Positions 3,452 to 38,152 of a DNA stretch of 64,000 bases are shown in pieces. Source of the stretch: a virus; UHGV virus genome UHGV-0125199; one strand, 5' to 3'. The position numbers were made by a program, and so were the translations under genes. How positions within the stretch are numbered: the first letter of the stretch is position 1; the number at the start of each line of letters is the position of its first letter. The notes below the pieces were generated by a model. The model made no database searches, was not told where the DNA came from, and saw nothing but the letters and a program-made list of their open reading frames with translations.

Positions 3452-3523
3452 GGCTCCATGGTCAAGAGGCTAAGACATCGCCCCTTCACGGAGGTAACAC
3501 TGGTTCAATTCCAGTTGGAGTCA
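3452..3523 (+). tRNA. tRNA-Glu(UUC)-like gene with an atypical anticodon arm (possibly a pseudo-tRNA)
   Basis: 72-nt cloverleaf that aligns position by position with Firmicutes tRNA-Glu. Acceptor GGCTCCA/TGGAGTC, 3-bp D-stem GTC/GAC, T-arm ACTGG-TTCAATT-CCAGT, discriminator A. The anticodon loop is CCTTCAC (C33 instead of the near-universal U33) and the anticodon stem has a G-A mismatch. Confidence 0.6.
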
Positions 3524-4558: not shown

Positions 4559-4628
4559 GCTTGGATAGTTTAATGGAAAACGATTGACTTGTAATCAATT
4601 GTTCCCAGTTCAAATCTGGGTCTGAGCT
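4559..4628 (+). tRNA. tRNA-Thr (anticodon UGU)
   Basis: Acceptor GCTTGGA/TCTGAGC (two G-U pairs), D-arm GTTT..AAAC, anticodon arm ATTGA-CTTGTAA-TCAAT, T-arm CCCAG-TTCAAAT-CTGGG. No encoded CCA. Confidence 0.8.
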
Positions 4629-21853: not shown

Positions 21854-22255
21854 ATGGCAAAAAAAGTTGTTTCCAGTTTTTTGGAAGTTAAAGGATTGGT
21901 TGAAAAAGATGTGCACTCTGGTATGAATGATGCAAGGGATGAAGTTGAAATAAAATTAGAAGATAATGTAATGGGATATTATGACATTGGAAATCCGGTA
22001 AAATACGAAAGAACAGGAACATTATTGGAATCTCCTAACACTACTCCTGTTTCTGGTGGAGGAAATCATTTTGAATTTAAAGCAGAAATGCAAGACAATA
22101 TTTCTTATCATACTGGAACTTACACTGGGGCACAAGTAATTGATGCAACAGAGCAAGGACATTCTGGAACTCTTGGTAAACATGGATATTTTGCAAAGAC
22201 AGAAGCGGAAATTCCTGAAATTGTGGATAGGAATATGTCGAAGTATTTGAAGTGA
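21854..22255 (+). CDS. hypothetical protein (133 aa)
   Basis: AGAAGGTG SD. No motif recognised. Confidence 0.5.
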   Translation: MAKKVVSSFLEVKGLVEKDVHSGMNDARDEVEIKLEDNVMGYYDIGNPVKYERTGTLLESPNTTPVSGGGNHFEFKAEMQDNISYHTGTYTGAQVIDATEQGHSGTLGKHGYFAKTEAEIPEIVDRNMSKYLK

Positions 22256-22264
22256 AAATAATTA

Positions 22265-22289
22265 CCCAGGATGCGGCTAACATCCTGGG
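22265..22289. terminator. bidirectional terminator-like hairpin between convergent genes
   Basis: CCCAGGATG-cggctaa-CATCCTGGG, a perfect 9-bp stem. The U-tract is on the minus-strand side. Confidence 0.45.
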
Positions 22290-22345
22290 GTCGTAAAAAG
22301 GAAACTATTTAAATGACATATATGCAGAATTAATTAAATGATTTT

Positions 22346-22519
22346 TTACCTACGGTTCTTACGTAATGACAATGAGTATTCAAATTTTATATATTTGGAG
22401 AATTGAATTTTACATTTCGCGTTTTTAACATCCTTAGAAAATGTATTAAACGTAAAAACAAGAATAATTAAAAGAACTAATGCAATAACAATAAGACTTA
22501 AAATTATAATTGTTGTCAT
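22346..22519 (-). CDS. small membrane protein (57 aa), minus strand
   Basis: MTTIIILSLIVIALVLLIILVF... with a GGTGGTGAAAAATG start context, similar to the 20877 gene. Not in the ORF track because it is under 60 aa. Confidence 0.4.
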   Translation of the reverse strand: MTTIIILSLIVIALVLLIILVFTFNTFSKDVKNAKCKIQFSKYIKFEYSLSLRKNRR

Positions 22520-22783
22520 TTTTCACCACCCTTCTGTACTTTGATATACAGAACGGGAGTGTTTGCGAAAGAAATCCGCAGAGATATGATGTATAGAAAT
22601 GATACATATAATAATTAATCACCTTTCTGCCATATGTACTGTTTTCATTTCGTATACAAGATGTATACTTCCACAGACGCTTCTGCCAGATACATACCCG
22701 TGGCAACGGATTGGTTGTGGTAGATCCAATCGATATGTATCCAATTTCATTATAACAGAATTTCACTGGAATTAAATATAGAT

Positions 22784-22835
22784 TTTCTCCGTTTCGTATA
22801 GTATGATAATAACAAACTATTATGAAACGGAGAAA
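22784..22835 (+). repeat. 12-bp perfect inverted repeat (hairpin) that sequesters the SD of the downstream small ORF
   Basis: TTTCTCCGTTTC-(28 nt)-GAAACGGAGAAA. The 3' arm contains the GGAG SD, located 6 nt before ATG 22841. Confidence 0.5.
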
Positions 22836-22840
22836 TTATT

Positions 22841-22981
22841 ATGTGTGAAAATTCAAGAAACCGTGAACCTATTAGATGGGAAATATCAAGTAAGAATCCG
22901 TCGAGAGGTGATGCTCCATCTCCTATCGATATTTTCAATCAAGATATTTCTATGAATCAGGAAGGGGAAAACGAAGATTAA
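22841..22981 (+). CDS. acidic mini-protein (46 aa), first gene of the duplicated cassette
   Basis: MCENSRNREPIRWEISS...NQEGENED is a paralog of the mini-ORF at 39591 (MCSKNEISNRNVIVEISS...NQENQEE). Confidence 0.35.
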   Translation: MCENSRNREPIRWEISSKNPSRGDAPSPIDIFNQDISMNQEGENED

Positions 22982-23009
22982 TATAAATATCAATGAGTTA
23001 TTATACCAA

Positions 23010-23561
23010 ATGCCGCTCCTACTGGAATTCTTAGTTCCTGGTTTTATATTTATGACAATGTTTAATTATTTCACATCGTCAAAAATAGAACATTCAATTC
23101 TATGGAGCGTTGCAATAAGCTACATATTAAAAGCATTATGTAGTTTTTTACACGAGTTCATTTTTAAAGATGTTATTTTCAAATGGAATGAACGTGTTAT
23201 AATTCTTGTTTTAATATCAATTATTTTAACGATAATTCTAATTCGATTTTACGAGTCAGAATGGTTGCATAAAATATTCAAATTTATCAATTTCAAAACC
23301 CAACATGATTGTATTTGGAATGATGTAATTGATATGAAAAGAGGAACAACATTAAAAGTTATTTGTAATGACACAACTTATATAGGAATATTGTATATGT
23401 TTGAAGAACATGGAAAAGATTCTTGGTTTGTGTTATCAGATTATATTATAGAAGAAAATGGGAATGCTTATGATTCAAGTAAATCAAATTTTCCATGCAA
23501 AATTGCAATTAATTTGAATGATGCAAAAAGAATAGAATTATATTATGGAAACACAGAGTAG
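23010..23561 (+). CDS. three-TM membrane protein with C-terminal soluble domain, cassette copy 1
   Basis: 183 aa. A paralog of 39722..40318, with shared VPG(F/Y)IF...IW(N/D)DV...G(T/A)LK(V/I)...Y.G.L motifs. Confidence 0.55.
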   Translation: MPLLLEFLVPGFIFMTMFNYFTSSKIEHSILWSVAISYILKALCSFLHEFIFKDVIFKWNERVIILVLISIILTIILIRFYESEWLHKIFKFINFKTQHDCIWNDVIDMKRGTTLKVICNDTTYIGILYMFEEHGKDSWFVLSDYIIEENGNAYDSSKSNFPCKIAINLNDAKRIELYYGNTE

Positions 23562-23653
23562 ATTTATTTCTCTCTGTGTTTATTTATTTACTACTGCTCT
23601 CCTTTCGTGAGGGCTTTTTTGATGTCCAAATTTGAGAGGAGTGATTTTTAAAA

Positions 23654-24838
23654 ATGAGTGAATATGAAGTACGCGTTGACACGAATGTAGACACAAGTGA
23701 ACTCGATTCCGCACAGAAAAAATTAGATAGTTTAGTTAAAAATGGAAAACATATTAAAGTTGATTTTGATATTCAGGGAATGAAGAACCTGAATAAGATC
23801 AATGGTGTCTTAAAAGGAATCGAAAAAAATAATAAGATCAGTGTAAAAGCTGATATGGATACATCCGGAATTAAAAAAGGATTATCTGATATTGAAAAAG
23901 CGAAACGAAGTGTTTCTACTTTAAAGATTGATGCAGATGTTTCAAAAGCGAATGCAGATTTTAAAAAGTTTGAATCTCTTACGACAAAATCCGCGGAAAA
24001 GGCTCGAAAGTTATTATCTGACATCAATAAAGATATTAATAATGTGAAATTGGCTCCAAATGATTCCATTATGGAAATTAATTTTAAAAAACTTACCAGT
24101 GATTTAGAAAAGTACAGGAATCAGATTAAGGTTGTACAAAATGAGCAAAAAGCTCTTGGTAATTCTATTACATCTGTATCAAAATCATTTAGTAAAATTG
24201 ATGCAGTAACTGCCTCTAACAAGACCTTAACGTGGTTAAAAAACAATAGTCGCGCTGCAAAAGTATATGGCGATCAACTAAAAGAAATTGCAGAATCTCA
24301 GAGAAAAGCAACATCAGATTCAGAGCTAACTTCACTAAATAAAGATTTCAACAAAACTGTATCTGAGGCAAAATTACTTGGACTTACTGGTAAAAGTTTT
24401 ACAGCGGAATTTAAACGTGCATTTTCTCAAATTGCACAGTTTACGCAAATTTATGGTGGAATTGAAAATGTAATTCAGACTATTCAAAACTCTGTTATTG
24501 AATTAAAAAATGTTGATTCTATTTTAACAGAAATTTCTAAAACATCTGATATGACAACAGATCAACTTACAAAACTTGGAGAAACATCTTTTGATTCCGC
24601 AAGCAAGTGGGGAAAGAAAGCAAGTGATTACCTACTTGGTATCCAAGAAATGAGTAGATCTGGCTATTATGGCAAACAGGCTGAACAAATGGCTGAAACA
24701 AGTATTCTTGCTCAGGCAGCCGGTGATTTAAATTCAGATGTTGCAAATAGTTATCTTTTGGCATCGAATGCCGCATATCAATATTCTGGAAATGTTCAAA
24801 AACTTAATGCATTGCTTGATGGACAAAATATGATTAAT
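23654..24838 (+). CDS. tail tape measure protein, segment A (ORF runs to 24868; probable exon ending near 24838)
   Basis: N-terminal coiled coil, then a TP901-type tape-measure core: ...TDQLTKLGETSFDSASKWG...AQAAGDLNSDVANSYLLASNAAYQ. The core is truncated and continues in the ORF at 26020. Confidence 0.65.
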
Positions 24839-26061
24839 ATAGTGGTCATGCTATATAGAAATATATAGCTTCATAGTTGGCTTTTATCCCGGAAACTCCA
24901 GAGATGGACAATCGGGAGGATAAGTTAAATAAAATACGGTAGAAAGAGGATATTATAGAAATAAAATTAAAATCATGGCAAACTCTCGCAAACTGTAAAT
25001 TTTGTAATAAAGAGTTTGTAACTACTAAATATAAGGTTAATAATAATAAAAATGGTGTTTTTTGTAGTAGAAGTTGTTATGCTGACTACAAAAAAGAAAC
25101 GATGACAGGTTCACAAAATATAAATTATAAAGAAAAGGTAAAGGTTCATTGCGATAATTGTGGTAAGGAAATTGAAAAAATACCATCTTTAACACATAAT
25201 ATAAACAAACAAGGAGAAAACCATAACTTTTGTTCTTATGAATGTTATTGGGAATTTCGTAAAAAATATTATGTCGGGGATAAATTATATAATACTGGAA
25301 AAAAGATGGACGAAATTTTTTGCAATAAGGTAAGAGAAGCAACATTAAAACAATATCAAGATGGTATACTTGATAGACAAACAATACCACAAAAGATAGT
25401 TAATAGTATATTAGAAAAAAATAATATTAATTATATCAATGAAAAAACTTTTAAATATTATTCTGTCGATAATTATTTAATAGAACATAATTTAATTATT
25501 GAAGTTATGGGTGATTATTTTCATGTGAACCCTTTAATTTATACAGATTCAAATGAGATGAATAATATGCAGAAAAAGGATATTGATAGAGACAAAAGTA
25601 AACATACATATATAAAAAAATATCAGGATGTTGAAATTTTATACCTATGGGAATCCGATATAAAAAATAATCCTTTATTATGTGAAGAATTAATAAAAAA
25701 ATATATAGAATCAAATGGCAAGTTGGAAGAATATAATTCTTTTAACTTTTCTTTTTGTGATAACAATTTAAAATTAAATAACAATATTATTAAACCGTAT
25801 TTTATTTAACCCCCTAACGACTAAGTTGTAATATGGTAACATATTGCACACGCCGACTTCGATAGATATAGTCTATCCGTTACCTATAAGTCCGTAGGAA
25901 CGCCTAACGTAAAACGAGGGAAAAGATATAGTCTAGTCTCACGCTATAATCTAAAAATGAAACGTGAGAGGTAGGATTAACGTCCTATCCGCTTTATTGT
26001 TATTTAACAATAAAGTCCAATGCTTTGTCCTGGAAGCATAGTAATAGAACAAACTAACAGG
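24839..26061 (+). mobile_element. group I intron (about 1.2 kb) in the tape-measure gene, with a homing endonuclease gene
   Basis: The two tape-measure ORFs are in different frames and each continues the same conserved core domain. R-like AACGACTAAG at 25816-25825. Two near-consensus S elements AGATATAGTC at 25864-25873 and 25924-25933. A G at 26061 is 128 nt after the second S element. The exact 5' splice site is not resolved. Confidence 0.55.
24952..25809 (+). CDS. intron-encoded Vsr/DUF559-like homing endonuclease with tandem N-terminal zinc fingers
   Basis: IIEVMGDYFHV...DIDRDKSKHTYIKKYQDVEILYLWESD fits the Vsr/DUF559 (EDxHD-type) nuclease fold. Two CxxC...CxxxC fingers. The frame is open from 24943 after an AAAGAGGA SD with no canonical start before ATG 25102. 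Confidence 0.6.
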   Translation: MIEIKLKSWQTLANCKFCNKEFVTTKYKVNNNKNGVFCSRSCYADYKKETMTGSQNINYKEKVKVHCDNCGKEIEKIPSLTHNINKQGENHNFCSYECYWEFRKKYYVGDKLYNTGKKMDEIFCNKVREATLKQYQDGILDRQTIPQKIVNSILEKNNINYINEKTFKYYSVDNYLIEHNLIIEVMGDYFHVNPLIYTDSNEMNNMQKKDIDRDKSKHTYIKKYQDVEILYLWESDIKNNPLLCEELIKKYIESNGKLEEYNSFNFSFCDNNLKLNNNIIKPYFI

Positions 26062-26778
26062 AACAGTGTATCCATGCAGGATATGGCAGAAGCCACAACT
26101 CAAGCAGCTTCAATGGCATCAGAATTGGGGGTTCAAGAAAATCAACTTTCTGCGATGATTGGAACAATTGAGTCCAGAACAAAAGCAGGTGGCAATGAGG
26201 TTGGTAATGCGATCAAATCATTGTTGATAAACGTTCAGAATGTAAATAACTCAAAAATTGCAGAAACGTTTAAAAAAGCTGGCGTTGCTCAGACAGAGTT
26301 TGTAAACGGTGTAGAAAAAATGCGTAATCCAATTGAAGTATTGGAGGATCTTGCGAAAGTATTTAATCAATTAGAAGAGTCAGATCCACTGCGTACAGAA
26401 ATTCTTACAAATATTGGACAGAAATACCAAGCGAACAAACTAAGTGCTTTATTATCTGGATGGTCTGACTATGAAAAAATGCTTGTAGATTATTCTGAGG
26501 GTACAGGAAGTGCTGCAAAAGAAGCAGAAAAATCTGCAAATAACTGGGAAGGATCTCTAAATAAATTATCAAATACTTGGACTGGATTTATTCAGAATTT
26601 CGCTAATTCCAACATGATTACTTCTGGATTACAAGGACTTACTGGAATAATTAAAATAATCGACACAGTTGTTTCAAAAGCAGGAACACTCGAAACTGTT
26701 ATGGGAGTTTTAGGTGGAGGATTAGCGAGTAAAACAGGATGGGGTAAAACTATCGTAGTTTATAATGCCCCTTTCTAT
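26062..26778 (+). CDS. tail tape measure protein, segment B (ORF 26020..26790)
   Basis: VSMQDMAEATTQAASMASELGVQENQLSAMIGTIESRTKAGGNEVGNAIKS...LEDLAKVFNQLEE...NKLSALL continues the tape-measure core. The frame runs into the downstream intron-like element and stops at 26790. Confidence 0.6.
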
Positions 26779-27250
26779 AAGGTTGCATAATAACGCCATG
26801 CAATTAACGTAGAGAGTGTTCATATTATATATCGTAGTGTAATATGACCATCCTTGGAAATATAGATTTTCTAAATTGTCGAATATCGGGGGAAGCCGTA
26901 AGCCTATTTATATAGGTACCGGAGCGATGCAATAAAAGCGTATTATTATATAGAAGAAATACGTTCGTGAAGGAATAAGCATTTAATGCGAAAATGGTAG
27001 TCCCGACGCACTATAACTAAAACATGGAAGTGTAGTTCCATATATAGGGCGCGAGAGACTGACAAGACATGACGTGATACAGGCGTAATTGTATCATATG
27101 GTACACAACATACAGTCCGTACCTGGGGAAAGCCCAGGGTAGTCAATATGAGATACGGCAGTATACACTACTGCTCTATTGATGCAAACTACACAACCTG
27201 TTGCTGACTTGCAAAAACAGGACAGGATTATACGGCGTATCTCTCGTCGT
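26779..27250 (+). ncRNA. group I intron-like core sequence at the 5' end of a 4 kb intervening segment
   Basis: TAACGCCATG (26791-26800) is identical to the 10-mer after the terL-intron endonuclease gene. GTAGAG (26809-26814) can pair as a guide sequence with the exon end TTCTAT (26773-26778). P-like CTAAATTGTCGAATATCGGGGGAAG, R-like GAGAGACTGACA (27053-27064) and S-like GGGTAGTCAATA (27137-27148). Confidence 0.4.
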
Positions 27251-27296
27251 TTTCTAATAGAGATAAAAAAATAGACACAAATTGTTTACATTCTAC

Positions 27297-27324
27297 TTGA
27301 CTTAATACAAGAAGAATGTATAAT
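27297..27324 (+). promoter_or_regulatory. sigma-A-type promoter
   Basis: TTGACT-16 nt-TATAAT, with a TG upstream of the -10. Confidence 0.4.
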
Positions 27325-27366
27325 AATACATGAGTTAAAAAATATAGCTCGAAACACCACGATGTA

Positions 27367-27397
27367 AGGACAGGGGATTACCTCCTGTCCTTTTGTT
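27367..27397 (+). terminator. terminator/attenuator hairpin
   Basis: AGGACAGG-ggattacct-CCTGTCCT followed by TTTGTTAT. Confidence 0.4.
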
Positions 27398-27537
27398 ATG
27401 TTGTGGAAACAAATAAATAGAATAATTTTTTCTTTCCAAAAACACAAGAGATATTTTAAATATAGAGAAAACAACTATATATAGGAAAAATTTATATAAT
27501 TAGTGTGTTTTTTATTTTTCCGCACTATATCTAGCGG

Positions 27538-27566
27538 TTGAACAAATTTAATAAAAAATGTATAAT
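27538..27566 (+). promoter_or_regulatory. sigma-A-type promoter for the small-gene/GNAT operon
   Basis: TTGAAC-17 nt-TATAAT. The ATGTATAATAA motif recurs at 27316, 27558 and 27632. Confidence 0.45.
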
Positions 27567-27668
27567 AAGATACACAAAAAATAGTCTAATTTATTTCTCA
27601 CGTTATATTTCGACATTTTGTTTAATTTTTTTGATGTATAATTGCTTCAAATACCAAGGGGTGATTAT

Positions 27669-27881
27669 ATGAAGTTAGGTAAAAAAGGATCCATACATAC
27701 AAAAGAGGAGGTAAGACATATGGCAGTCTCAATGGCAGTTGTACCGTTATTAAAAGGGGAAGCGGCTACTAAAATCGTAGATGATTTTAAAAGCAGCAAA
27801 TTAAAACCATTTACAGACGATCAACGTAAGAAGACTAATGCTAAAGTAGCTGAGATACTCAAAGGTAAACGTAATGGATAA
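27669..27881 (+). CDS. small protein overlapping the GNAT gene (candidate antitoxin/regulator)
   Basis: 70 aa from ATG 27669 (AAGGGGTGA SD). Its stop overlaps the GNAT start by 8 nt. Confidence 0.4.
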   Translation: MKLGKKGSIHTKEEVRHMAVSMAVVPLLKGEAATKIVDDFKSSKLKPFTDDQRKKTNAKVAEILKGKRNG

Positions 27882-28431
27882 CACAGAAAACTTTCAATAT
27901 AAAGAAGAGTTACTAAGCAAAGAGTCATTAAGACATTTTATGTTAGTAGGTGATTTTTGCTGTGGTGCAGACAATCCATTAAATACTTTCTTATCAGATG
28001 ATGCATTTGATTATGCAGAAGAAAAGCAAGGACACACATACATTTTAATGGACAACGAATACACTTGTATACTAGCATTTTACACAATTAAGGCTAATGC
28101 AATTCATACATTTAATATAGATACAAACGAATATATGGCGTTGCCTGTTGTGGAAATAGCAAGAATTGCTGTAGATTTTGACTTCCAAGGGAATGGTTTA
28201 GGGAAAATATTATTTTATGATTATATAATACCTAAAATAAAAAAAGTAAGTAAGATTATTGCAATATATGGTATCATTGTATTTGTAGAATCGGAAAATG
28301 GTCAAGGAATACAATTTTATAATTCACTAGGATTTAAAAGAGCCAATAATGAAATACAAAAAGCAGTTGGTGATTCTTATAACGAAAAATGTGAATTGTA
28401 TGTGCTGAAATTAGATGATATAAAAGAGTAG
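27874..28431 (+). CDS. GNAT-family N-acetyltransferase
   Basis: 185 aa. VEIARIAVDFDFQGNGLGKIL matches the acetyl-CoA-binding R/QxxGxG/A motif with the preceding beta strand. Confidence 0.7.
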   Translation: MDNTENFQYKEELLSKESLRHFMLVGDFCCGADNPLNTFLSDDAFDYAEEKQGHTYILMDNEYTCILAFYTIKANAIHTFNIDTNEYMALPVVEIARIAVDFDFQGNGLGKILFYDYIIPKIKKVSKIIAIYGIIVFVESENGQGIQFYNSLGFKRANNEIQKAVGDSYNEKCELYVLKLDDIKE

Positions 28432-28556
28432 GGAGTAATCCTACTCTTTTATTATATTGGCTGATGTTTTTATTTTATAGAAACATATGTTCAGACTACT
28501 CTTCTATTCATTATTGGTATATAATGGAAATACTAAAGATGAATAGGAGTAATATA

Positions 28557-29366
28557 ATGCCGAAATTTAAAGCCAGTTCTGTTATTTCGATGCTGAAACG
28601 GTTTACAGATGAAGAAAAAAATAAAAAAACTCAGTCTTGTCCGGAATTGAAGAATGAGATTAAAAATGTATTAGACGATACAAAGATCATTCTATATAAA
28701 CAATCCAGAGAGGACGCGATTAAATATATTTTATGGCAAGGATTATTGAATAGATATGGGATTTTTGGGAGCAACAGAAGACAACACCGCTTATTTGGTC
28801 AAGATAAAACAGATTATTATGCTCAAGAGTACCAACATGGAGATATTGTAAGTATAGACTTCGGAACATCGAATATTGGAAGCGAATTTTCGTTTACTCA
28901 TACCGCACTTGTTTTGCATGAATTTACTGATTTTTTAATTGTTATACCTATTACTACTGCTAAAGATGGTAGATTAGAGAATAAGCCATTGGATGAACAG
29001 GAATCAACATTTGTAATACATAAAAGTGATTTTTCGTTTATAGAAGCTGATTCATATGTATTAATATACCAGATAAAATCTATTTCAAAAAATAGAATCA
29101 CGAAAAGAATTGGGAATATAACAGGGTCAAAGTTTTTGTGTGACGTTGATAGCGAAGTGTTTAACATACTATTAGATCCGCTTTCAAAAAAAATATCAGA
29201 AGAAATAACAAACCTAAATATAAAGATATCAGATTATAAAAATATGATTGAAGAAAAAGATGAAAAAATAAGAGAATTAAATTGCTTGGTGGAAAATTTA
29301 AAACAAAATATTAAAAATAATGATAAAAATGTGTTGACAAATCTGGATTTCCATGATACCATATAG
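28557..29366 (+). CDS. protein containing a MazF/PemK-like domain with a C-terminal coiled coil
   Basis: GDIVSIDFGTSNIGSEFSFTHTALVLHEFTDFLIVIPITTA matches the MazF/PemK consensus Gdiv.vdf.p.GsE..g.RPalVv...........v.PiTs. Start chosen at ATG 28557 (AGGAGT SD); the ORF-track start is 28464. Confidence 0.5.
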   Translation: MPKFKASSVISMLKRFTDEEKNKKTQSCPELKNEIKNVLDDTKIILYKQSREDAIKYILWQGLLNRYGIFGSNRRQHRLFGQDKTDYYAQEYQHGDIVSIDFGTSNIGSEFSFTHTALVLHEFTDFLIVIPITTAKDGRLENKPLDEQESTFVIHKSDFSFIEADSYVLIYQIKSISKNRITKRIGNITGSKFLCDVDSEVFNILLDPLSKKISEEITNLNIKISDYKNMIEEKDEKIRELNCLVENLKQNIKNNDKNVLTNLDFHDTI

Positions 29367-29597
29367 GCATAAAAGATAGATATTTTTAGCAATGGCTATT
29401 AAATATAACTACATGGAGAGGTCTTTACGAATAAACGTAAAGACCTTCTTACTATTTAAAAATATATTTACGTTTTAATTAAAAAAGACTGGGTTATCAT
29501 ACCTAGTCTTTTCTCATGTATATTTTTAAATTCCAACTACTCTCCTCCCCACTAAAAATAGCTCTTACAGTTATTACGCTTCCACTGTTTACCGATA

Positions 29598-30035
29598 TTA
29601 TTTTGGTATATTATTGATAATTGCACTAATGTATTCCGGATCATTTATTATTGCATTAAAAATTGTACTGGCGAGTGACATAATTCCATGAATAGACGCA
29701 ACCCCCATTTTCTTCGCAGATTTTTTCGTTGCATTCCATATTGTCTCTGGTCTAACCGTATTTATAAAATTATGACCGCTCCATGAAATGTCATCAACAT
29801 GACCTGATAATTTTCTGTCTTTCCCATTATAATTTTTATATCCAGTAATATAGCCAGCGCTCATTAATTGTGTCAGTGTATATGCAACATCTTCTTCGGA
29901 ATATTTATTGTCTTGTGATAGTTCATTTATTATCGTTTTAAAAGAAATACCTTTTATAGAAAAATATTCACACATCACAAGATTATCCTCTAAATATATT
30001 AATGTGTCTCTTACACATTCAGGATTTAGTTTCAT
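29598..30035 (-). CDS. DUF2513 (YjcQ)-like protein
   Basis: 145 aa. ...VRDTLIYLEDNL...EEDVAYTLTQLMSAGYITGY resembles the DUF2513 signature. GGAGGT SD on the minus strand. Confidence 0.45.
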   Translation of the reverse strand: MKLNPECVRDTLIYLEDNLVMCEYFSIKGISFKTIINELSQDNKYSEEDVAYTLTQLMSAGYITGYKNYNGKDRKLSGHVDDISWSGHNFINTVRPETIWNATKKSAKKMGVASIHGIMSLASTIFNAIINDPEYISAIINNIPK

Positions 30036-30065
30036 AAGTTATACCTCCAAGAAAGGAATGATTAA

Positions 30066-30287
30066 ATGAAAGATATTACTATTCATTATAAAACAGATGA
30101 TGAAATGACAAATAAAGATAATCCTCTTTATGATCTACGCAGCCGAATAGCGGTTCTAGTCGATGGAAAACCAATTGAAAGATTAAAAAGGTTCTCAATT
30201 GATTTTGATGTTAACGACATAGAACCAACTTATTGTGTGGAGCAATATATGGATTTTCCCAATAACGATCAAGACTATACGATATAA
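30066..30287 (+). CDS. hypothetical protein (73 aa)
   Basis: AAAGGAA SD. Divergent from the DUF2513-like gene. Confidence 0.4.
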   Translation: MKDITIHYKTDDEMTNKDNPLYDLRSRIAVLVDGKPIERLKRFSIDFDVNDIEPTYCVEQYMDFPNNDQDYTI

Positions 30288-30303
30288 GTCTATCACTCTC
30301 CTC

Positions 30304-30783
30304 TCACGGTTTCCATGTATGACCACAGTTAGAACATCTATTGACTGTTTTATTACTTCCTAAGAATCCAGTCAGGATTGAGTAGCCTTTTTGCCCGGCG
30401 GTAATTGATGTAGATCCACATTTCGGACAACGTGGTTTAGATTCCTCTGCTTTCTTACGTTCTTCCTCTGCTTCTTTGGCTTGAACTTGTGACCGGAATT
30501 GCGACATTTTTAATTCATATTCTATGATATCGTCATCGTGTAATTTTATCATTGCATCGTAGAAATCTGTGGAATCTGAGATTTTTGACAGAATAATAAA
30601 ATCATCATCCGGCATTGATGTCATGATTATTGGATGACCATATGGGCATTCTGTAGCAGTGTCTTCATAGAAATACACATAACCATTTCTATAAATTCCA
30701 TCTTGTATTTTTTCTTTTTTGCATGTTGGACATATTTTTAAATGATTAACCATATTTATCCCCCTATATATTTTTAATTGCAA
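30304..30783 (-). CDS. zinc-ribbon protein
   Basis: 159 aa. N-terminal CPTCKK...ECPYGH and C-terminal CPKCGS...CSNCGHTW zinc ribbons. AGGGGGA SD. Confidence 0.5.
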   Translation of the reverse strand: MQLKIYRGINMVNHLKICPTCKKEKIQDGIYRNGYVYFYEDTATECPYGHPIIMTSMPDDDFIILSKISDSTDFYDAMIKLHDDDIIEYELKMSQFRSQVQAKEAEEERKKAEESKPRCPKCGSTSITAGQKGYSILTGFLGSNKTVNRCSNCGHTWKP

Positions 30784-30907
30784 GTTATTTATATATAGTT
30801 TATCAGAACAATAGACGATTGTAAACTACGACTCTGATGCGGATAAATTCACATCTATTTTTGACAATTTTAAAAAGAAAACAAAACCTAAATTTAATCA
30901 AGATACA

Positions 30908-33900
30908 TTGGATTTTGCAAAAGAATTCAATAAGCTGGGTAAGAATTCAAATATTGATAATATAGTTTCTCAATTTAAAGAGGTGGATTCTAGTGTTGTT
31001 GATATGGCAAAGTCTGTAAAAGATGGTTCTATGTCAATGGATGAGTTCATTGAAAAATCTACAAAAGCTACAACTACCTCTTCTAAATTCAGTAGAATGG
31101 CAAAAACTGCTGGTACCGCACTGAAGTCAATTGGTGCTACTGCTCTGAATATGTTTGGTGGTTTTCTTATTGCTGAGGGGCTTAGTCTTGCAATAAAAGG
31201 AATTTATAATCTTATAAACGCAGACAAGATTGCAATTGAAAATGGGGAAAAGGCTCAACAGGAAATTAAGGAAGTATTTGATACTTACAACGGAAAAGTC
31301 GATACGATTAAAACGCTAGGAAAGAAATTTGCCCAAGATGCAGATTCAATCAAGACCACAGGTGATGCCGTAGAATCACTAACTAAAAAATATGCAGAAC
31401 TTAGAAAAGGTGTCAGTTCAGATAATACAAATCTTACTCTTTCTGAAAAGGAATACCAGGACTATCTTGACATAAGCAATCAATTAGCTGAATCATTCCC
31501 ATCACTTGTATCTGGTAGTGATGCAGCCGGAAATTCTATTTTAAATTTAGGTGACAATGCGTCTGTTGCCGCTGACAAAATGGAAAAACTGCAAAAAACA
31601 CAAATGACGTTGGCTCATAATGATATTGTTGATAAATCAAGAGATACATTTAGGGGTGCATTTGAAAAAGCAGACAATATTGAAGATGAGATAAAATCAT
31701 TAAAAGGTCAAGAAAAACAATTAAAAGAATCTGCTTCTCAAATATCTTTAAGCCGAGATGAAATCAGAGAACAGCTTAAAAGTGGACATCTTATCTTCAA
31801 GGATATGTCTAAAACCGACGCAGACAAGATGGAAAAGGCACTTGGAGCATATGTCGGGAAAGAATTGGGTCGTGTCAGACGGTCTGACGTATCTTTGGAT
31901 GGTCACACTATTGACAGAATCGAATTTACAATTGATCCTGTAGTAGATGAGAACAAACTTAATGAAGCAACTGATATGATTGAGGCTAGAGTTTTAGCTG
32001 GAGAAGATGAGATTGCAGCTAAAAAAGGTGAAATACAATCCAATATTAAAGCACAAGAACAAAAGCAAAAAGAAGTCTGGAATAGTTTTGCTGAAAGCAC
32101 AGTAAAACCTTATCTTGAAACATCTGCTGCTATTTCTGATATGCCTGTTGAATTACTTAATGCAGTAGAAAGTAATTTACAGAATTTAGATTGGAAAAAA
32201 CTTTATAAAGAATACGGCGGAGATGCCGATCAGATGCTTTTGGATGAATTAGTTTCGCCGCTAAACAGTCTAGAAAAACCGGCACAAGAAGCTTTGACAA
32301 AGGCTCTTAGTTTAGACCCATCAACAATGTCTATTGCTGAATATAATAAAGCTATTGACTCTGCTTTGAAGGAAGTTTCTGATAACAAAGCAACCAGAAA
32401 AGAATGGAAAAATAGATTCTTTAAATCTGCTATCGATTCTGCAACTGAAGATGCTAATGCATTAAAAGAGCAGTTTAAAGGCATAGATAAAGAGATCGAC
32501 AACTTAAGCGGAGAAGACAGGGAGTTAGCATACCAAATTGCTATTGAGGATGAGGATTTCGACGGAACTTGGCAAGATGTAATGGACAAGATTAAGACCA
32601 TGAAAGAAGAAGCCGAAAATCCGATGACATTCAATCTTGGTACATTTACATCAGAAGTTGGAGATGCGATTGCTTTAATTGATACATTAAATGCTGCTCT
32701 TGCAAATAGTTATTCTGGAAAAGGATTAAGCGTATCTTATGAAGTAGACGAAGAAACTGGTGTTGTACAGTTAACTGGAGACATCGCAAATCTTCAAGCA
32801 GCTTATTCAGATTTAGAAGGATATGATCCATCTATTCTATTCGAAAGAACAGCAAATGGTGTACATATTAACAGAGAAGCTCTTAGACAATTACAGGCTC
32901 AAGAAGAAGCTTTGAACAAGTCTAAATGGCTCGAAGACGAAAAGAATCTTACAGATCAATTAGCAGTGGCTACCAACAAATTAGCAAATGCAAAGAATTC
33001 TGGAAGTGAATCTGATGTTGCGTCCGCACAAGCAACCGTGGATTCATTACAACAACAGTTGGAGCAAGTTCAATTGTTGTCAGCTGCATATGACGGAGCC
33101 ACTTCTGCATATCAGCAATGGATAAATGTACAATCATCTGGTGAAGATGGAGATATGTATAGAAACGTCTCTGAAACTATGAAAACAAGGGGCGATGCGT
33201 TATACAAAGAAGGTCGATATAATACAGAAGAATTTCGTGCAATTGCCGACTACTTCTCCAATGAAGATTTGTCTACTGCACCAATGGAAAAACTTGTTGC
33301 TGCTTATGAAAATGCTGCTAATGCAAGAGAAAGATACTTTACCGGGAATAAACAGGGTATTGATAATTTCATGGCTGATATGCAAAATGATGCAGAATTA
33401 ATGTCAAAAGGGATTGTCAAAACACTTGAAGACGGAACTATGGAATTCCAAACTGGTTCAGATAAAATATTGGCTGATAAATTCCATCTTAGCGAAGAAG
33501 CAATTCAATCTATTTTAAGAGCTGCATCAGAATATGATGATGGTATAAAAATAGGTAAAATTGACGGTTCAGAAGACTTTAATGCATCTATTGATGAAAT
33601 GAAATCAAAAGCTGACGAAGCAAAAGGCAAACTTGAAGAATTAAAGAATGCTGGAAATCAGAGTCTGGATTTAGATTTTAATTTCGATAGTACAGACTTA
33701 GAAGATTTAGATAGTCAGATTGAACGTGCAAAATCTAATCTTGATCAATTCAAAAATTCAGATGGTCAGATTGATTTAAATGTCGAAGGCGCTCAAGAAG
33801 CTGTTACAATTTTACAAACCCTTATTCAGCAAAAGATTATGGTGAGCCAGCCGGCAATTATGACAATTGACACGACTGGACTTGATGAAGCTACTGCTGA

Positions 33901-36727
33901 TACGGTTTCTAAGTTGCAAGAATTTCAAGAGCAATTAAACACTGTTAATTCATTAGAGATGCAACAAGATTTTGGAATTCAAGTAGACACTAACCAACTT
34001 GACGCTGCGAAGGCTAAGGCTCAAGAATTATTCTCAGAATTGCAAGGAAAATCAGAAGATGGTTCACTTGAAATTACACCAGATGTAAAAGTTGATACAG
34101 GATCAATGGAGTCATTGGAGCAAAGTTTGTCTTCTATGACGCCTGAAATAAAAGCAAAAATTGTTCCAGATGGAAATGTATCTGATACTCTGGTTACTGG
34201 TGATATTAAGGTTGAAGACCAGACTGCAAAGGTAGATTATGTAAGAGGAAGCCAAGAAGCTCCTGCTGACAGAACTGCTTCTGTTGATTATATTAAAAAG
34301 GGCACAACACAAATTGAACCTGCCGACAAGAGTGCTGCTGTAACTTATAGTAAGATTGGCGGAGAACAAGCACCTCCATCGGACAAGAACGCAAATGTTA
34401 ATTATAAAAAAGGGGAACAAGAAGCACCGAGTAAGAAAAATGCAGTTGTCGATTATAAACGTGGATCACAAGAATTGCCTGATTCACCTAAAAGTGCAAC
34501 TGTTAATTATACTCTTGGAAATGTTGCTACTCCACCAGACGCTTATGTAAAAGTACACTATGATACATCCGGAAAACCAAAAGGTAGTAGTCCAGCCAAT
34601 GGTACTGCTCATTCACAAGGAAGTGCCAACTCTGGTCATGCATTTTCTAGTGGATCGTGGGGATTAAAACAACCTGAAAAGGGCGCTCTGATAAATGAAT
34701 TAGGTGCAGAAATTATTGTCAGAAATGGACAGTGGTTTGTAGAAAATAATGGATATCCTACTATCACTAATCTCAAAAAGAATGATATCGTGTTCAATCA
34801 TGAACAATCCAAAGCTTTGTTAGAACGAGGATATGTTACTGGATCTCATGCTAAATTAGCATATGAAGGCAATTCTCATGCAAAAGGAACTGCATTTTCT
34901 GGGGGGTCTTGGACTTTTGGGAATACAGGTGGTGGAAACATTGGAGGCACCAACACTACTTCCAACAATCTCAACTCCGCATCAAATAATCTTGCCAAAG
35001 CTGCTTCTGATACTTCCAAAGCAGCATCTGATACATCCGAAGCTGCCGAGAAATTATCAGAAGCAGTATCCGGATACACGGACTGGGTTGAGGTGTTATT
35101 CAAACGCTTAGAATCACAGTATGATTTGCTGATGAGTCAAATGGAGCGTATCGCACATCTCCCAGACAAGCAACAGAAACTGTATGAGGCAATGTCTAAG
35201 AACAGTGAACTACTGAATAGGACTCAGCAAGCAATTGGGACTTATCAAAGTCATTTTGATTCTATTGTACAACAGAGTGGAATAAACCCACTTATCGTAC
35301 ATCAGATTCAGAACGGGTCTATGGATATTTCAAAATACGACCAGGATACTCAAAAAATAATCAGTGAGTTGCAGTCTTATTATGATAAGCTCGTAGACTG
35401 CAATAAACAGTACGATGACCTCTTAAATAAACAGAGTGAACTGGCGCAGACAGCATTGGATAATATTGAAGATTACATCGATATGATGACTGGAATTGAG
35501 TCCTCTGCTGTAGATTATCAGGAAGCATTACGTGAATTAGCAGCTGCAAAAGGAGAATCTGCATATTCCGATAATATGTATGGCTCTCTGCAAGAATCTA
35601 TTAAAAATCAACAGGACGTTGCAGGTAAATTACAGTCACAGATTAAATCATATCAAGATGAAATCAATAAACTCATGGCAAATGGGTATATGGCTGAATA
35701 CTCAACGGAATGGTTTGAAGCACAAGCTGCATTAAATGGATTCCGGCAAGAAGCTGCTGAAGCTGAGAAAACACTGATTGAATTACAAGATCAGTTAAGA
35801 GAACTTGATTTACTGAAACTGCAACAGGTTATTGATGAGTTAGACAGAACTGCAAAACGACTGGAAAACAATTCTGACCTTACAGAATCAAAAGGTGAAC
35901 AGGTATCTGAAAAAGATTTACAGGCACAGCTTGACAATGCAAATGCACAGATTCAGGCAAATTACGATAAGCGGAATGAACTATTAAAGGATCAGGCAAA
36001 ATATGATGTCGGTTCTGACAAATATAATGAAATTGCGGAAGAGATAGAAAAGCTCGATGACGCTATCTTTGATGCAATGGAGAACATTGAAGACCTCAAA
36101 AATAAAATCTGGGAAGTAAGATGGCAACCGTTCTTTGATGGACAGGAAGCATTAGGTGATCTGATTGACCAGACAGATGATTTAAGAGGACTTTTAAATA
36201 GTGATGCTTTTCTTGATAAGAACGGCGGTTTAACTGTAGATGGTATTGCAAATTTGTCTTTGATTAGTCAGGGTATGAATGCTGCGAAACAGCAAATCAA
36301 GAATTATCAAGAGGCATTGAAGAAGCTTGATGAGGATTTAAAGAACGGGAATATCTCAACAAGTGAATATAAGGAGCAGCAAAAAGAATTTCTCAATCAG
36401 ATTTCAAGCTCTGTTGGCGTTGTTGAAGACTACAAAGATTCTATTGTTGATCTCTATACAAAGATGCTTGAGCAAGAGAATGAAGTTGCTCAAAAATCGA
36501 TTGATAAGCAGAAGGAATTGTTGGATATCAAAAAGAAAAATGCTGATTACAATAAGACTCTGCGTAAACAGGCTAGAGATGTGAATACATTGAAAGCTCA
36601 GATTTCAGCACTCGAAGGCGTGAAGTTATTTGCGCGACTTCTATTTAATAGCGGGAAAGTCCCCACAACCCTATCTTGCTACAACGGAACTGGAAACGGT
36701 AAACGTGAATGCGGTACGAGTTTATAA
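30908..36727 (+). CDS. tail tape measure protein, main segment C (1939 aa ORF; frame open from 30815; probable exon about 30818..36676)
   Basis: Glycine-zipper hydrophobic segment AKTAGTALKSIGATALNMFGGFLIAEGLSLAIKG, more than 1000 aa of helical repeats, a conserved ...GAEIIVRNGQWF...DIVFNHEQSKAL tape-measure C-region, then a 600-aa coiled coil. TTG start in the ORF track. Confidence 0.7.
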   Translation: MDFAKEFNKLGKNSNIDNIVSQFKEVDSSVVDMAKSVKDGSMSMDEFIEKSTKATTTSSKFSRMAKTAGTALKSIGATALNMFGGFLIAEGLSLAIKGIYNLINADKIAIENGEKAQQEIKEVFDTYNGKVDTIKTLGKKFAQDADSIKTTGDAVESLTKKYAELRKGVSSDNTNLTLSEKEYQDYLDISNQLAESFPSLVSGSDAAGNSILNLGDNASVAADKMEKLQKTQMTLAHNDIVDKSRDTFRGAFEKADNIEDEIKSLKGQEKQLKESASQISLSRDEIREQLKSGHLIFKDMSKTDADKMEKALGAYVGKELGRVRRSDVSLDGHTIDRIEFTIDPVVDENKLNEATDMIEARVLAGEDEIAAKKGEIQSNIKAQEQKQKEVWNSFAESTVKPYLETSAAISDMPVELLNAVESNLQNLDWKKLYKEYGGDADQMLLDELVSPLNSLEKPAQEALTKALSLDPSTMSIAEYNKAIDSALKEVSDNKATRKEWKNRFFKSAIDSATEDANALKEQFKGIDKEIDNLSGEDRELAYQIAIEDEDFDGTWQDVMDKIKTMKEEAENPMTFNLGTFTSEVGDAIALIDTLNAALANSYSGKGLSVSYEVDEETGVVQLTGDIANLQAAYSDLEGYDPSILFERTANGVHINREALRQLQAQEEALNKSKWLEDEKNLTDQLAVATNKLANAKNSGSESDVASAQATVDSLQQQLEQVQLLSAAYDGATSAYQQWINVQSSGEDGDMYRNVSETMKTRGDALYKEGRYNTEEFRAIADYFSNEDLSTAPMEKLVAAYENAANARERYFTGNKQGIDNFMADMQNDAELMSKGIVKTLEDGTMEFQTGSDKILADKFHLSEEAIQSILRAASEYDDGIKIGKIDGSEDFNASIDEMKSKADEAKGKLEELKNAGNQSLDLDFNFDSTDLEDLDSQIERAKSNLDQFKNSDGQIDLNVEGAQEAVTILQTLIQQKIMVSQPAIMTIDTTGLDEATADTVSKLQEFQEQLNTVNSLEMQQDFGIQVDTNQLDAAKAKAQELFSELQGKSEDGSLEITPDVKVDTGSMESLEQSLSSMTPEIKAKIVPDGNVSDTLVTGDIKVEDQTAKVDYVRGSQEAPADRTASVDYIKKGTTQIEPADKSAAVTYSKIGGEQAPPSDKNANVNYKKGEQEAPSKKNAVVDYKRGSQELPDSPKSATVNYTLGNVATPPDAYVKVHYDTSGKPKGSSPANGTAHSQGSANSGHAFSSGSWGLKQPEKGALINELGAEIIVRNGQWFVENNGYPTITNLKKNDIVFNHEQSKALLERGYVTGSHAKLAYEGNSHAKGTAFSGGSWTFGNTGGGNIGGTNTTSNNLNSASNNLAKAASDTSKAASDTSEAAEKLSEAVSGYTDWVEVLFKRLESQYDLLMSQMERIAHLPDKQQKLYEAMSKNSELLNRTQQAIGTYQSHFDSIVQQSGINPLIVHQIQNGSMDISKYDQDTQKIISELQSYYDKLVDCNKQYDDLLNKQSELAQTALDNIEDYIDMMTGIESSAVDYQEALRELAAAKGESAYSDNMYGSLQESIKNQQDVAGKLQSQIKSYQDEINKLMANGYMAEYSTEWFEAQAALNGFRQEAAEAEKTLIELQDQLRELDLLKLQQVIDELDRTAKRLENNSDLTESKGEQVSEKDLQAQLDNANAQIQANYDKRNELLKDQAKYDVGSDKYNEIAEEIEKLDDAIFDAMENIEDLKNKIWEVRWQPFFDGQEALGDLIDQTDDLRGLLNSDAFLDKNGGLTVDGIANLSLISQGMNAAKQQIKNYQEALKKLDEDLKNGNISTSEYKEQQKEFLNQISSSVGVVEDYKDSIVDLYTKMLEQENEVAQKSIDKQKELLDIKKKNADYNKTLRKQARDVNTLKAQISALEGVKLFARLLFNSGKVPTTLSCYNGTGNGKRECGTSL

Positions 36728-37330
36728 CTCAACAGTCTTCGGATAGAAACCATAAAAAACAGATAGGTCAGGGATAACCGGGTGTGCAAGTCACCCAGAC
36801 GCAACGAACTTCCTAAGTCATATATGATTTATGATATGGAAGACGCTCAACGACTGGTAAGTCCTATATATTATAATATGTAGGCATAGGGTTACAAGCG
36901 ATTGGTAACTCGAAAAATATAGACTATTTGAATAAGAAATGAAATGAACAATTAAATATGATATATGTTATAATTAAGATACATCTATGATGCACTTATG
37001 AATACAAGAACGTATGTTTTGTATATATTTAACAATTGTAAACATATCACTTTGTTTGTATTTTGTGTAGAATTTTCTCCGTATATGGGATATAATAATA
37101 ACAAGAAAACAGCAGTGTTTTCTTAAATATATCTGGTGTGATGCAGCGTAATATGACTGCTATAAATAATCTTTGAAGTGTACGCCGGGTTAGGAACCGG
37201 TTTACATGGAGATTTACAAAGGTGCGAGGATTTACCATAGCCTAACTAGGAACTATGTTCTGAAAGAAAGTCCTTGAATGAATAGAAGGGTCATCACCAG
37301 TGACTCTTCTATTTTTATACCAAGGAGAAG

Positions 37331-37932
37331 TTATGGATAATATATCATTGGCACTAAATAATTTCAAAGAATTGATGAATTGCAATTATGATTTTATAAT
37401 AGTTTGTAATAAGCAAAAATCAGATATAAAACTTACATTTGAATCAAAAGATTTTTATCATTTAGTAGGGTTTCAATACTTAAAAGATATAGACATCCCT
37501 AAAAATGAAAAACAGTTATTTAAAAAAATAGAATCTCTTAAGATTACTGATGAGTATTTAGGCAAAAGTGTGTTTTATACAAAAGTGGATTACAGCTATG
37601 CAAATGTAAAAGAACGAATTTCCGGATTTAAAGATGTTGATAAATTTATAGAAAACAAAAATATTATATGTAGATATATAAAAACTAATAACCCTTCATC
37701 GGCTATAAAAGCGGATTATTTAATAAAAAGTACTTTATATAACAGAACGGCATATATGTTTTTGAGAAAAAGAAGCAAAGGAGATGAATATTGTATGTGT
37801 TCATTTTTTATGCAACCACAAAATGAATATATAGGTCAAAAAACATATTGGTTGTATAAAGCCAAAAAACGTATATCGGACAATTATGTTAAAATATTGT
37901 TAGATAGAATATCGGAATCCACAGAGCAGTAA
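37331..37932 (+). CDS. intron-located ORF of unknown family (candidate homing endonuclease)
   Basis: 200 aa from ATG 37331 (AAGGAGAAG SD). Sits between the R and S elements. No LAGLIDADG, GIY-YIG, HNH or Vsr motif recognised. Followed by the terminator at 37924-37958. Confidence 0.45.
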
Positions 37933-37958
37933 CAGGTAATACTACTGCTCTTTTATTA
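37924..37958 (+). terminator. rho-independent terminator after the intron ORF
   Basis: GAGCAGTA-(11 nt)-TACTGCTC followed by TTTTATTATG. Confidence 0.5.
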
Positions 37959-38152
37959 TGTCCAAAATCATTTCAAAAAAAATTCCAAATTATTCAAATA
38001 GAAGGTATAGTCTCAACTTCTGAGGATAACTCAGAGAAGTTCATAAGAGAACTGCATAGCGTAGCGAACTATGTGAAGATAATTGAAATAATGCGAGTGC
38101 TCAGGCTGAATTAAAGAGGTTAAAAGCACAACTCAGAGATACAGAAGAAGAA

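Follow-up and report, generated by a model that had tools for sequence, protein, structure and literature searches.

UHGV virus genome UHGV-0125199 was analysed here over 64,000 nucleotides (the window), in which the conserved core of a phage tape-measure protein begins in one open reading frame (ORF) and is completed in another. Several questions arise at this locus. Are the two ORFs parts of a single gene? What separates them, and is the intervening RNA of a kind that removes itself? How did it come to be there? A first-pass annotation had proposed that the core is split by an intron carrying a homing endonuclease. The reading that we favour, with a probability of about 0.8, is that positions 24835-26051 are a mobile group I intron lying in the conserved tape-measure core, which would splice from the transcript and home by way of an EDxHD enzyme.

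ORF A (23654-24868, 404 amino acids) and ORF B (26020-26790, 256 amino acids), both on the plus strand, are on profile evidence two parts of one TP901-type tape-measure core. Alone, ORF A gives a sub-threshold match to positions 2-79 of the 201 of Pfam PF10145 (PhageMin_Tail, 16.8 bits) and ORF B matches positions 85-197. Conceptual splicing restores a single match to PF10145 (2-197 of 201, 74.5 bits, cut-off 33.2) and a single match to TIGR01760 (16-339 of 349, 109.5 bits, cut-off 28.8), which bears out the proposal of one divided core. The description of a split into two ORFs is right in that both exist, but the tape-measure gene lies in at least four pieces in the window, not two.

A database search with a trial fusion of A and B returned more than 500 relatives, many of which (for example P0001, 95% identical, P0002 and P0009) run through the break without interruption, reading ...LNALLDGQNMITNRNSVSMQDMAEATT... 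The intact homologues have ...LDGQNMI|TNRNSVSMQD... at the junction. Five intronless alleles (L001-L004 and L008) align to the window as DNA up to 24834 and again from 26052, so the insert is 24835-26051 (1217 nucleotides); an A follows both boundaries, therefore a slide of one nucleotide, to 24836-26052, is possible. Tape-measure exon 1 is then 23654..24834 on the plus strand, ending ...CAA AAT ATG AT (protein alignment ending ...GQNMI), and exon 2 is 26052..26751 on the same strand, starting A ACT AAC AGG (..I TNR..), with an approximate 3' end set by the next insertion. The intron itself, read through in translation, accounts for N IVVMLYRNI at the C-terminus of A and for MLCPGSIVIEQ at the N-terminus of B.

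The insert had earlier been placed at 24839-26061, with the protein joined as ...MIN|NSV... and a terminal G at 26061. Intact homologues and intronless DNA move it to the boundaries given above. A junction at 24838|26062 using G26061 was rejected, as it removes conserved residues and contradicts the intronless DNA. Alignment of the fusion to intact tape-measure proteins fixes the junction at ...GQNMI|TNRNSVSM, and the relatives are either contiguous here or interrupted at this position by a homologous intron, rather than encoding A and B separately with no intron between.

A covariation-supported fold

Comparative structure was used to test the nature of the insert because Rfam gave no usable call. 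The structure was modelled by hand and tested on relatives, in an alignment (A3) of seven divergent copies with the ORF replaced by a GAAA loop. Standard pairs occupy 92.0% of cells; with the 3' partners shifted one to three columns the figure falls to 34.8-46.6%. Both sides change in 52 of 105 pairs, and none of 500 column shuffles reaches any of the observed measures. Fifteen helices were scored, with P3, P4, P7, P8 and two hairpins, H1 and H2, paired in 100% of cases. The ORF-deleted intron RNA has a minimum free energy of -119.1 kcal/mol (z = -7.99). Rfam Intron_gpI (RF00028; gathering score 50) does recognise an ORF-free relative in Oceanobacillus (L191 4170-4357, minus strand), at 61.8 bits. 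This relative has P1, P2, P4-P5, P9-P9.3 and the tail in common with the window intron, and a profile hidden Markov model of the 5' half of the window family matches it at E 9e-8. The covariation-supported structure, the z-score of the fold and homology to this Rfam-positive intron together identify 24835..26051 (plus strand), an insertion relative to the intronless alleles, as a group I intron.

All elements of the fold are on the plus strand. P1 (24830..24849) pairs AUGAUUA (24830-36) with UGGUCAU (24843-49), so placing the 5' splice site after U24834, in the wobble U24834.G24845; a second U.G pair, U24835.G24844, is adjacent. The splice-site wobble is U.G in six of the seven aligned copies, and compensatory changes give GAGAUUA/UGGUUUC in L011 and L035 and CAGGUUA/UAGCCUG in L103. 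A putative P10 guide, UAGU (24840..24843), read from the sequence and specific to the window-type intron, complements ACUA in exon 2 (26053-56). The P2 hairpin (24850..24869, GCUAUAUA-GAAA-UAUAUAGC), five of whose eight pairs change on both sides, contains the in-frame stop of ORF A (UAG 24866-68).

The block 24876..24917 includes the P and Q elements and holds the 5' strand of P3 (GUUGGC, 24876-81), P4 (UCCCGG 24887-92 with P4' UCGGGA 24912-17) and P5 (UCCA-GAGA-UGGA, 24897-908). P4 and P5 show covariation, and helices P3-P5 are 96-100% paired with double changes, P3 of L103 for example being GUCUGC/GCAGAC. A 16-base-pair P6 joins GUUAAAUAAAAUACGG (24924..24939) to CCGUAUUUUAUUUAAC (25795..25810) across the endonuclease ORF, whose stop (UAA 25807-09) lies in the 3' strand; L011 has a compensating insertion of two base pairs (UC/GA) in this helix. 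The R element UAACGACUAAG (25815..25825, the R-like TAACGACTAAG) supplies the 5' strand of P7 as A25817 and G25819-A25823, C25818 being bulged. P7 (A.GACUA/UAGUCU) is 100% paired and its third pair changes from C-G to G-C in L103 and L040 and to A-U in L044, each time in step with only the second of the two S-like motifs.

Between P7 and P3' is a P7.1-like peripheral hairpin (25827..25848, UGUAAUAUG-GUAA-CAUAUUGCA), in which six of nine pairs change on both sides and which is missing from the minimal relative L191. The 3' strand of P3 (GCCGAC, 25852..25857) forms a pseudoknot with P7 and is followed by a hairpin GAUAGA-UAUAG-UCUAUC (25861..25877), then P8 (25903-19, CCUAACGUAAAACGAGG), J8/7 and the S element (25924-33, AGAUAUAGUC), with P7' as UAGUCU (25929-34). 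Covariation is also seen in P9 (25937-43/25963-69), P9.1 (25970-89), P9.2 (25992-26015) and P9.3 (26020-25/26034-39), the last of which encloses the ATG of ORF B. The 3' tail is AGUAAUAGAACA (26040..26051), where the family consensus is (A)AGUAACAG-N3-4-G. The four classical elements are near consensus: P is AUCCCGGAAA, Q is AAUCGGGAGG, R is UAACGACUAAG and S is AAGAUAUAGUC, in its second copy.

Two near-consensus S elements had been claimed. Both exact copies of AGATATAGTC (25864-73 and 25924-33, plus strand) and the R-like element do exist, but only the second copy is S/P7', because it covaries with R: L103 and L040 have GAGUA in place of GACUA in R and, matching this, UACUC in place of UAGUC in the second copy, whereas the first copy of L103 is still UAGUC. 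The first copy forms the hairpin at 25861..25877, which covaries on its own (GAUGGG/CCCAUC in L035, AAUAUG/CAUAUU in L040); as it does not covary with R, both its assignment as an S element and a twintron were rejected. With up to one mismatch AGATATAGTC occurs eight times against 4.9 expected, a count that alone is not above chance. A third exact copy, on the minus strand at 52134-52143 within a 571-amino-acid ORF (51340-53055), is likely due to chance. A group II intron was also rejected on reading the sequence, which has no GUGYG 5' end, domain V or reverse transcriptase ORF. The P8-P7'-P9-P9.1 region weakly matches skipping-rope RNA (25909-25997, and 146-237 of relative L201; 16.7 and 17.1 bits against a gathering score of 36.7), and in Acetatifactor muris (L164 4213-4292) an intron of the family has a genuine skipping-rope RNA (69.5 bits) at a distance of 3 kb; the weak matches are probably chance, although recurrent.

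The endonuclease and homing

The P6 loop carries a homing-endonuclease ORF (24943..25809, plus strand, 288 codons between stops) with two zf-FCS fingers and a Vsr-like EDxHD domain. The tandem CxxC zinc fingers of the first-pass annotation are indeed two CxxC...C..C fingers, recognised by Pfam as zf-FCS (MYM-type; E 3.5e-10, 40 bits, cut-off 22.4), and the family profile also matches the MYM zinc finger 2das. Pfam, PHROGs, NCBIfam and a single-sequence phmmer search of the PDB left the C-terminal nuclease half unrecognised. Among at least 548 homologues, two are labelled Vsr-type by JGI, and 38 aligned homologues share invariant E167, D176, E187, G190, H194, D217, K220 and E237.

An AlphaFold (AF2) model of the protein has a mean predicted local distance difference test score of 89.6. 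The best Foldseek match in the PDB is the catalytic domain of I-Bth0305I (3r3p, E 2.9e-4, template-modelling (TM) score 0.82, 22% identity), and there are further matches to Escherichia coli Vsr (1cw0, 5e-4; 1vsr, 3.7e-3) and to the DUF559-like NGO0050 (3hrl, 5e-3). Comparison with Vsr and I-Bth0305I had been suggested as a check on the enzyme class. By sequence, the family profile matches 3r3p at E 6.6e-5 and aligns D176 with D196 and H194 with H213, residues mutated in the 3r3p crystal (D196A, H213A; PMC3239194). With the catalytic Asp and His aligned and the fold matched, the Vsr-like EDxHD class proposed earlier is upheld; E167 as the motif E and D217 as the last D of the catalytic set are putative assignments.

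The sole canonical start, ATG 25102, is downstream of finger 1. A Shine-Dalgarno-like AGAGGA (24946-51) stands upstream of AUU/AUA codons, and homologues with proper ATG starts contain finger 1. The window enzyme either starts at a non-canonical codon or is made without that finger. In some homologues the ORF continues into the ribozyme core (...NPLTTKL, encoded by AACCCCCUAACGACUAAGUUG), so the endonuclease family and the intron family travel together. The two fingers would serve as the DNA-binding part of the EDxHD endonuclease, which would cut intronless alleles near ...AATATGATA|ACTAACAGG...; repair would then copy the intron in.

Searches with exon 2 and the intron ORF recovered the same intron at 92% identity in L012 and at about 71% in L011, L015 and L016, with more distant copies at the same tape-measure site in L038, L103 and L044 and in another gene in L040. 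By nhmmer the intron 3' domain follows about 60 endonuclease homologues in viral contigs, and the 3' tail motif of the family (UGGUCAGUA...GAAAGUAACAG) is present in 101 species genomes (L116-L216). These genomes range from Bacillota to Patescibacteria, Bartonella, Psychrobacter, Actinomycetota and DPANN/Methanosarcinales archaea; in Oceanobacillus (L191 3156-4655) three tandem Rfam-positive group I introns fall within 1.5 kb. The exact window-type 3' end has no match in species-representative genomes, and two intron-core pattern scans of viral contigs gave no contigs beyond those already found. Against 50,697 isolated phages, blastn in 'distant' mode with 23654-27000 and with the 3' core found only a 37-nucleotide match to a Vibrio phage, and the tblastn matches to the endonuclease were all below 34% identity. 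The host phage or prophage is SPbeta-like and belongs to human-gut Lachnospiraceae, with relatives in Mediterraneibacter gnavus; in one genome of that species (L002) YomU/V/W Pfam families lie upstream.

In four alleles (L005, L007, L009 and L010) the intron is 98.4-99.8% identical to the window copy and the flanking exons are only 88.8-97.4% identical, with synonymous divergence (dS) up to 0.61, a nonsynonymous to synonymous ratio (dN/dS) of 0.05-0.15 and no stops. Exon tracts identical to the window extend only 62 nucleotides upstream and 12 nucleotides downstream of the intron in L007 and L010; beyond them there are 10-20 differences per 100 nucleotides. A near-identical intron in diverged alleles, bordered by such short co-conversion tracts, indicates recent homing. 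The endonuclease ORF is frameshifted in L005-L007, and L201 has at the same site an endonuclease-deleted derivative with only an ORF remnant. Frameshifted and deleted copies fit a homing cycle and therefore support this interpretation. The spread of the intron across alleles also implies that it is not destroying an essential tail gene.

The terminal adenosine and rival explanations

In the mechanism that we propose, the late transcript would fold and free guanosine would attack after U24834 (or U24835), which would be wobble-paired to G in P1. The freed exon 1 would be ligated to A26052 (or A26053), aligned by a continuous P1+P10 guide of 10 base pairs (UAGUGGUCAU). The ligated messenger would encode an uninterrupted ...LDGQNMITNRNSVSMQD... 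core, and complementary DNA would read ...AATATGAT(A/T)ACTAACAGG...; ribosomes on unspliced RNA would halt at UAG 24866-68 inside P2. The expected junction peptides are NMITNR for this intron and, for two further insertions in the gene described below, GWGKTIVNYDSDADK or a variant and ALEGVNNASAQAELK.

Several observations weigh against this reading. One concerns the 3' end. Introns of the family finish ...(G)AAAGUAACAG-N3-4-G, including those of L038, L201 and clusters P0075, P0081 and P0087 at the same tape-measure site. All six window-type copies terminate ...AUAGUAAUAGAACA, with A26051 at the omega position, a G in all the relatives examined, and with U replacing the conserved C at 26045, so that the family tail GUAACAG reads GUAAUAG in the window. 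As the G-binding pair of P7 is still G-C, the second step of splicing may be impaired. Nor is the conservation of the exons alone proof that the gene functions after the insertion, because that conservation mostly predates the arrival of the intron. The enzyme may be truncated or poorly made, since no ATG, GTG or TTG precedes finger 1. Lastly, Rfam Intron_gpI applied to 25780-26070 alone (291 nucleotides) gives only a partial match of 10.2 bits (E 3.8; gathering score 50), and the ORF-free near relative L201 reaches just 14.6 bits.

Rfam also found no group I match in the whole window at the gathering threshold, nor at E<=10 on 24000-34000 or in a scan of 26740-27340, and the covariance-model search suggested at the outset as a check did not recognise the window copy. 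The weak partial match terminates at the S/P7' region. Since even L201, with no ORF, scores 14.6 bits, the Rfam model appears insensitive to this intron subfamily; extra hairpins between P7 and P3' and between P3' and P8 are probably the reason for the low scores.

Is a group I intron without a terminal G credible? A bacterial group I intron that lacks omega-G naturally and self-splices is recorded in Coxiella burnetii 23S rRNA (Raghavan et al. 2007, J Bacteriol 189:6572), as far as the title cited in PMC5423948 tells. With a natural exception published, we treat omega-G as canonical and not as strictly defining. The terminal base of the Coxiella intron is reportedly A. Group I membership of the window insert rests on homology and structure, and omega-A lowers confidence in normal splicing.

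The internal guide, UAGUGGUCAU, could form an unbroken helix of 10 base pairs, two wobbles included, with the ligated exons AUGAUU|ACUA, and the omega-G relatives L038, L035, L103 and L040 are without such a P10. We read the window-type-specific P10 as a likely compensation that would fix the canonical junction. From the spread of the omega-A intron into several diverged alleles of an essential gene we infer that it still splices, helped by this P10, though probably less efficiently.

The first-pass annotation had assigned a terminal G at 26061; the position homologous to omega is A26051. No upstream G yields an in-frame product, and the downstream G26060 and G26061 would, minus three conserved residues. 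It is possible, but in our view unlikely, that splicing takes place at one of these, with G26060 as omega and the 5' site after U24834, or G26061 and the 5' site after U24835, so that the protein would lack three residues (...QNMMNSVSM... or ...QNMINSVSM...). Either pairing of sites keeps the frame and satisfies the rule of U at -1 and G at omega, the second U.G pair in the window-type P1 would permit the shift of one nucleotide, and the Tetrahymena intron resorts to cryptic 3' sites when its omega-G is mutated. However, the T-N-R residues and the length of the segment are conserved in all homologues, with no gaps, the four-base-pair P10 (ACUA/UAGU) fits the canonical junction and not the cryptic ones, and alignment of the 3' tails puts A26051 at omega.

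A less likely alternative again is that the window copy is a splicing-dead relic, leaving a truncated tape measure and a tail-defective phage or prophage. The combination of omega-A with an unchanged G-C binding pair and a deviant tail is what such a relic might display, as is a full endonuclease with no canonical start in a family where some copies are frameshifted. Yet four or more diverged alleles with co-conversion tracts share the omega-A intron at 98-99.8% identity, and so does L012 at 92%, with a tape-measure protein that has only 59% amino acid identity in the exon-2 region; this distribution requires repeated successful transfer between viable phages. The core helices are all intact, the exons downstream keep an open frame over more than 2,300 codons and, by the title cited in PMC5423948, Coxiella provides a natural group I intron without omega-G.

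That A and B are separate proteins which assemble into a split tape measure with no joining of RNA is very improbable, for although B has an ATG at 26020 and gene callers give the 256-amino-acid product in about 160 database sequences, no Shine-Dalgarno sequence precedes this ATG, which lies inside helix P9.3, the divergent copies L011 and L015 have no in-frame start there, the break interrupts one conserved domain, which hundreds of homologues have in one piece, and the spacer is a conserved ribozyme fold.

Known systems and neighbouring insertions

Both group I introns in phage tape-measure genes (PMC2504315) and phage EDxHD endonucleases (PMC3239194) are already known, and comparison with them informs on what is particular to the window intron. 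In Bacillus cereus-group prophages the tape-measure introns TMP-IVS1, -IVS2 and -IVS3a/b occur at several sites per gene, with adaptation of P1/P10 to the site, early stops and decay of the homing endonuclease gene (Tourasse & Kolsto 2008, PMC2504315). Like these, the window intron is of phage type (IA), interrupts conserved parts of the tape measure in frame and belongs to a gene with several occupied sites; related introns at different sites and different introns at the same site are common to the two systems, as are early stops in P1/P2 and endonuclease loss that leaves remnants. The window intron differs in its host, an SPbeta-like phage of gut Lachnospiraceae with no nucleotide similarity to isolated phages, in an endonuclease of EDxHD and not GIY-YIG or HNH type, and in its 3' base, A.

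The EDxHD prototype, I-Bth0305I, is encoded in the recA intron of Bacillus thuringiensis phage 0305phi8-36 (Taylor et al. 2011, PMC3239194; PDB 3R3P). The window enzyme is likewise intron-encoded, with a C-terminal Vsr-like catalytic domain. For DNA binding I-Bth0305I has two N-terminal NUMOD2/helix-turn-helix motifs (PMC3239194), whereas the window protein has two zf-FCS (MYM-type) fingers, a difference in an accessory and not a catalytic feature; the local motif is E-x-N-G-x-Y-W-H in the former and E-x-M-G-D-Y-x-H in the latter, and the ORF is located in P5 and P6, respectively. As far as the cited title goes, the Coxiella intron resembles that of the window in being a bacterial group I intron with a terminal nucleotide other than G; it resides in an rRNA gene and not a phage protein gene, the lineages are unrelated, and splicing in the window is only inferred. 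With Rfam RF00028 the window intron has its core topology in common, even though it scores 10.2 bits against 61.8 for its ORF-free homologue L191.

Two features of this intron, which comes from an uncultured gut-phage lineage, stand out against known ones: its omega-A terminus and a DNA-binding module made of zinc fingers. The module extends the little-studied EDxHD family to a zinc-finger architecture, of possible interest to enzyme engineers. An intron 99% identical between alleles that differ by 11%, with co-conversion tracts of 62 and 12 nucleotides, is a clean natural case of recent homing. If the omega-A copy does splice, it would offer a second natural test case for P10 and peripheral contacts replacing the terminal guanosine.

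The same gene has at least three interruptions in the window. In L013 a protein of at least 1927 amino acids runs without a break across the boundary between B and the 1939-amino-acid ORF C, so B (to about 26751) and C (from about 30818) belong to one protein although they are about 4.07 kb apart. The intervening gap 2 (26752-30817) has a group-I-like core in its first 500 nucleotides and then a variable island with sigma-70-like promoters (for example TTGACT-17-TATAAT at 27298-27326). The island holds a small ORF plus GNAT (27642-28431), a MazF/PemK-like protein (28464-29366) and, on the minus strand, DUF2513 (29598-30035) and a Zn-ribbon protein (30304-30783). Relatives carry other cargo here (Peptidase_M78, Trypsin_2, Panacea-like), and the 'GK' site is used by other intron lineages too. 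No convincing stem closes the 3.5-kb island (best duplex -24.9 against -18.3 +/- 3.2 kcal/mol for shuffles). A near-repeat of the distal junction of gap 2 (AATAGACG ATTGTAAAC) is present at 27262.

The third insertion (36622-38085) has the canonical U|...G| boundaries, with exon ...GGCGU| and omega-G38085; the intact L001 allele reads ...ALDSVNNEAAKAE. It contains R/S-like elements and an 11-base-pair stem (about 36918 with about 37992) that encloses the Rfam 'drum' RNA (37168-37278, 66 bits), a terminator and a PBECR4 nuclease ORF (37334-37932), and a homing endonuclease is lacking. Folded roughly with the cargo deleted, the intron gives only z -2.5, with the P8 stem wrongly cut. The layout of promoter, RNA, terminator and nuclease resembles type III toxin-antitoxin loci.

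Insertions 2 and 3 are candidate group I introns with non-homing cargo. We tentatively suggest, while considering it somewhat less probable than its converse, that the gene is a mosaic of at least three self-splicing introns, the first homing and ending in omega-A, the others acting as silent 'safe harbours' for a toxin-antitoxin- or defence-like island and for drum RNA with PBECR4. These cargo-bearing insertions are the most unusual thing in the region.

Close relatives (L002 11680-13570, L009 and L010) carry an extra insertion of about 1.9 kb, with ORFs of 61 and 393 amino acids, after ...EKSANNWE. The site corresponds to 26549/26551, at which the window copy is uninterrupted, and this further insertion makes the tape-measure gene a multi-site intron hotspot. 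Gene callers report the protein of the window as fragments of 404, 256, 1939 and about 450 amino acids and a 'hypothetical' of 235, and hundreds of similar database entries are pieces of one intron-interrupted gene. Such split genes will keep being mis-annotated in gut viromes because the single Rfam group I model misses this subfamily.

Two further observations concern the surroundings. Upstream of the tape-measure gene L002 (6125-8024), L003 and L004 have a Y1 transposase and a 486-amino-acid ORF, an IS200/IS605-like element and possibly an IStron; the window has no such element, 22255-23650 containing only a 183-amino-acid membrane-like ORF. Two tRNA genes (3452-3523 and 4559-4628; Rfam 48 and 66 bits) lie between ORFs.

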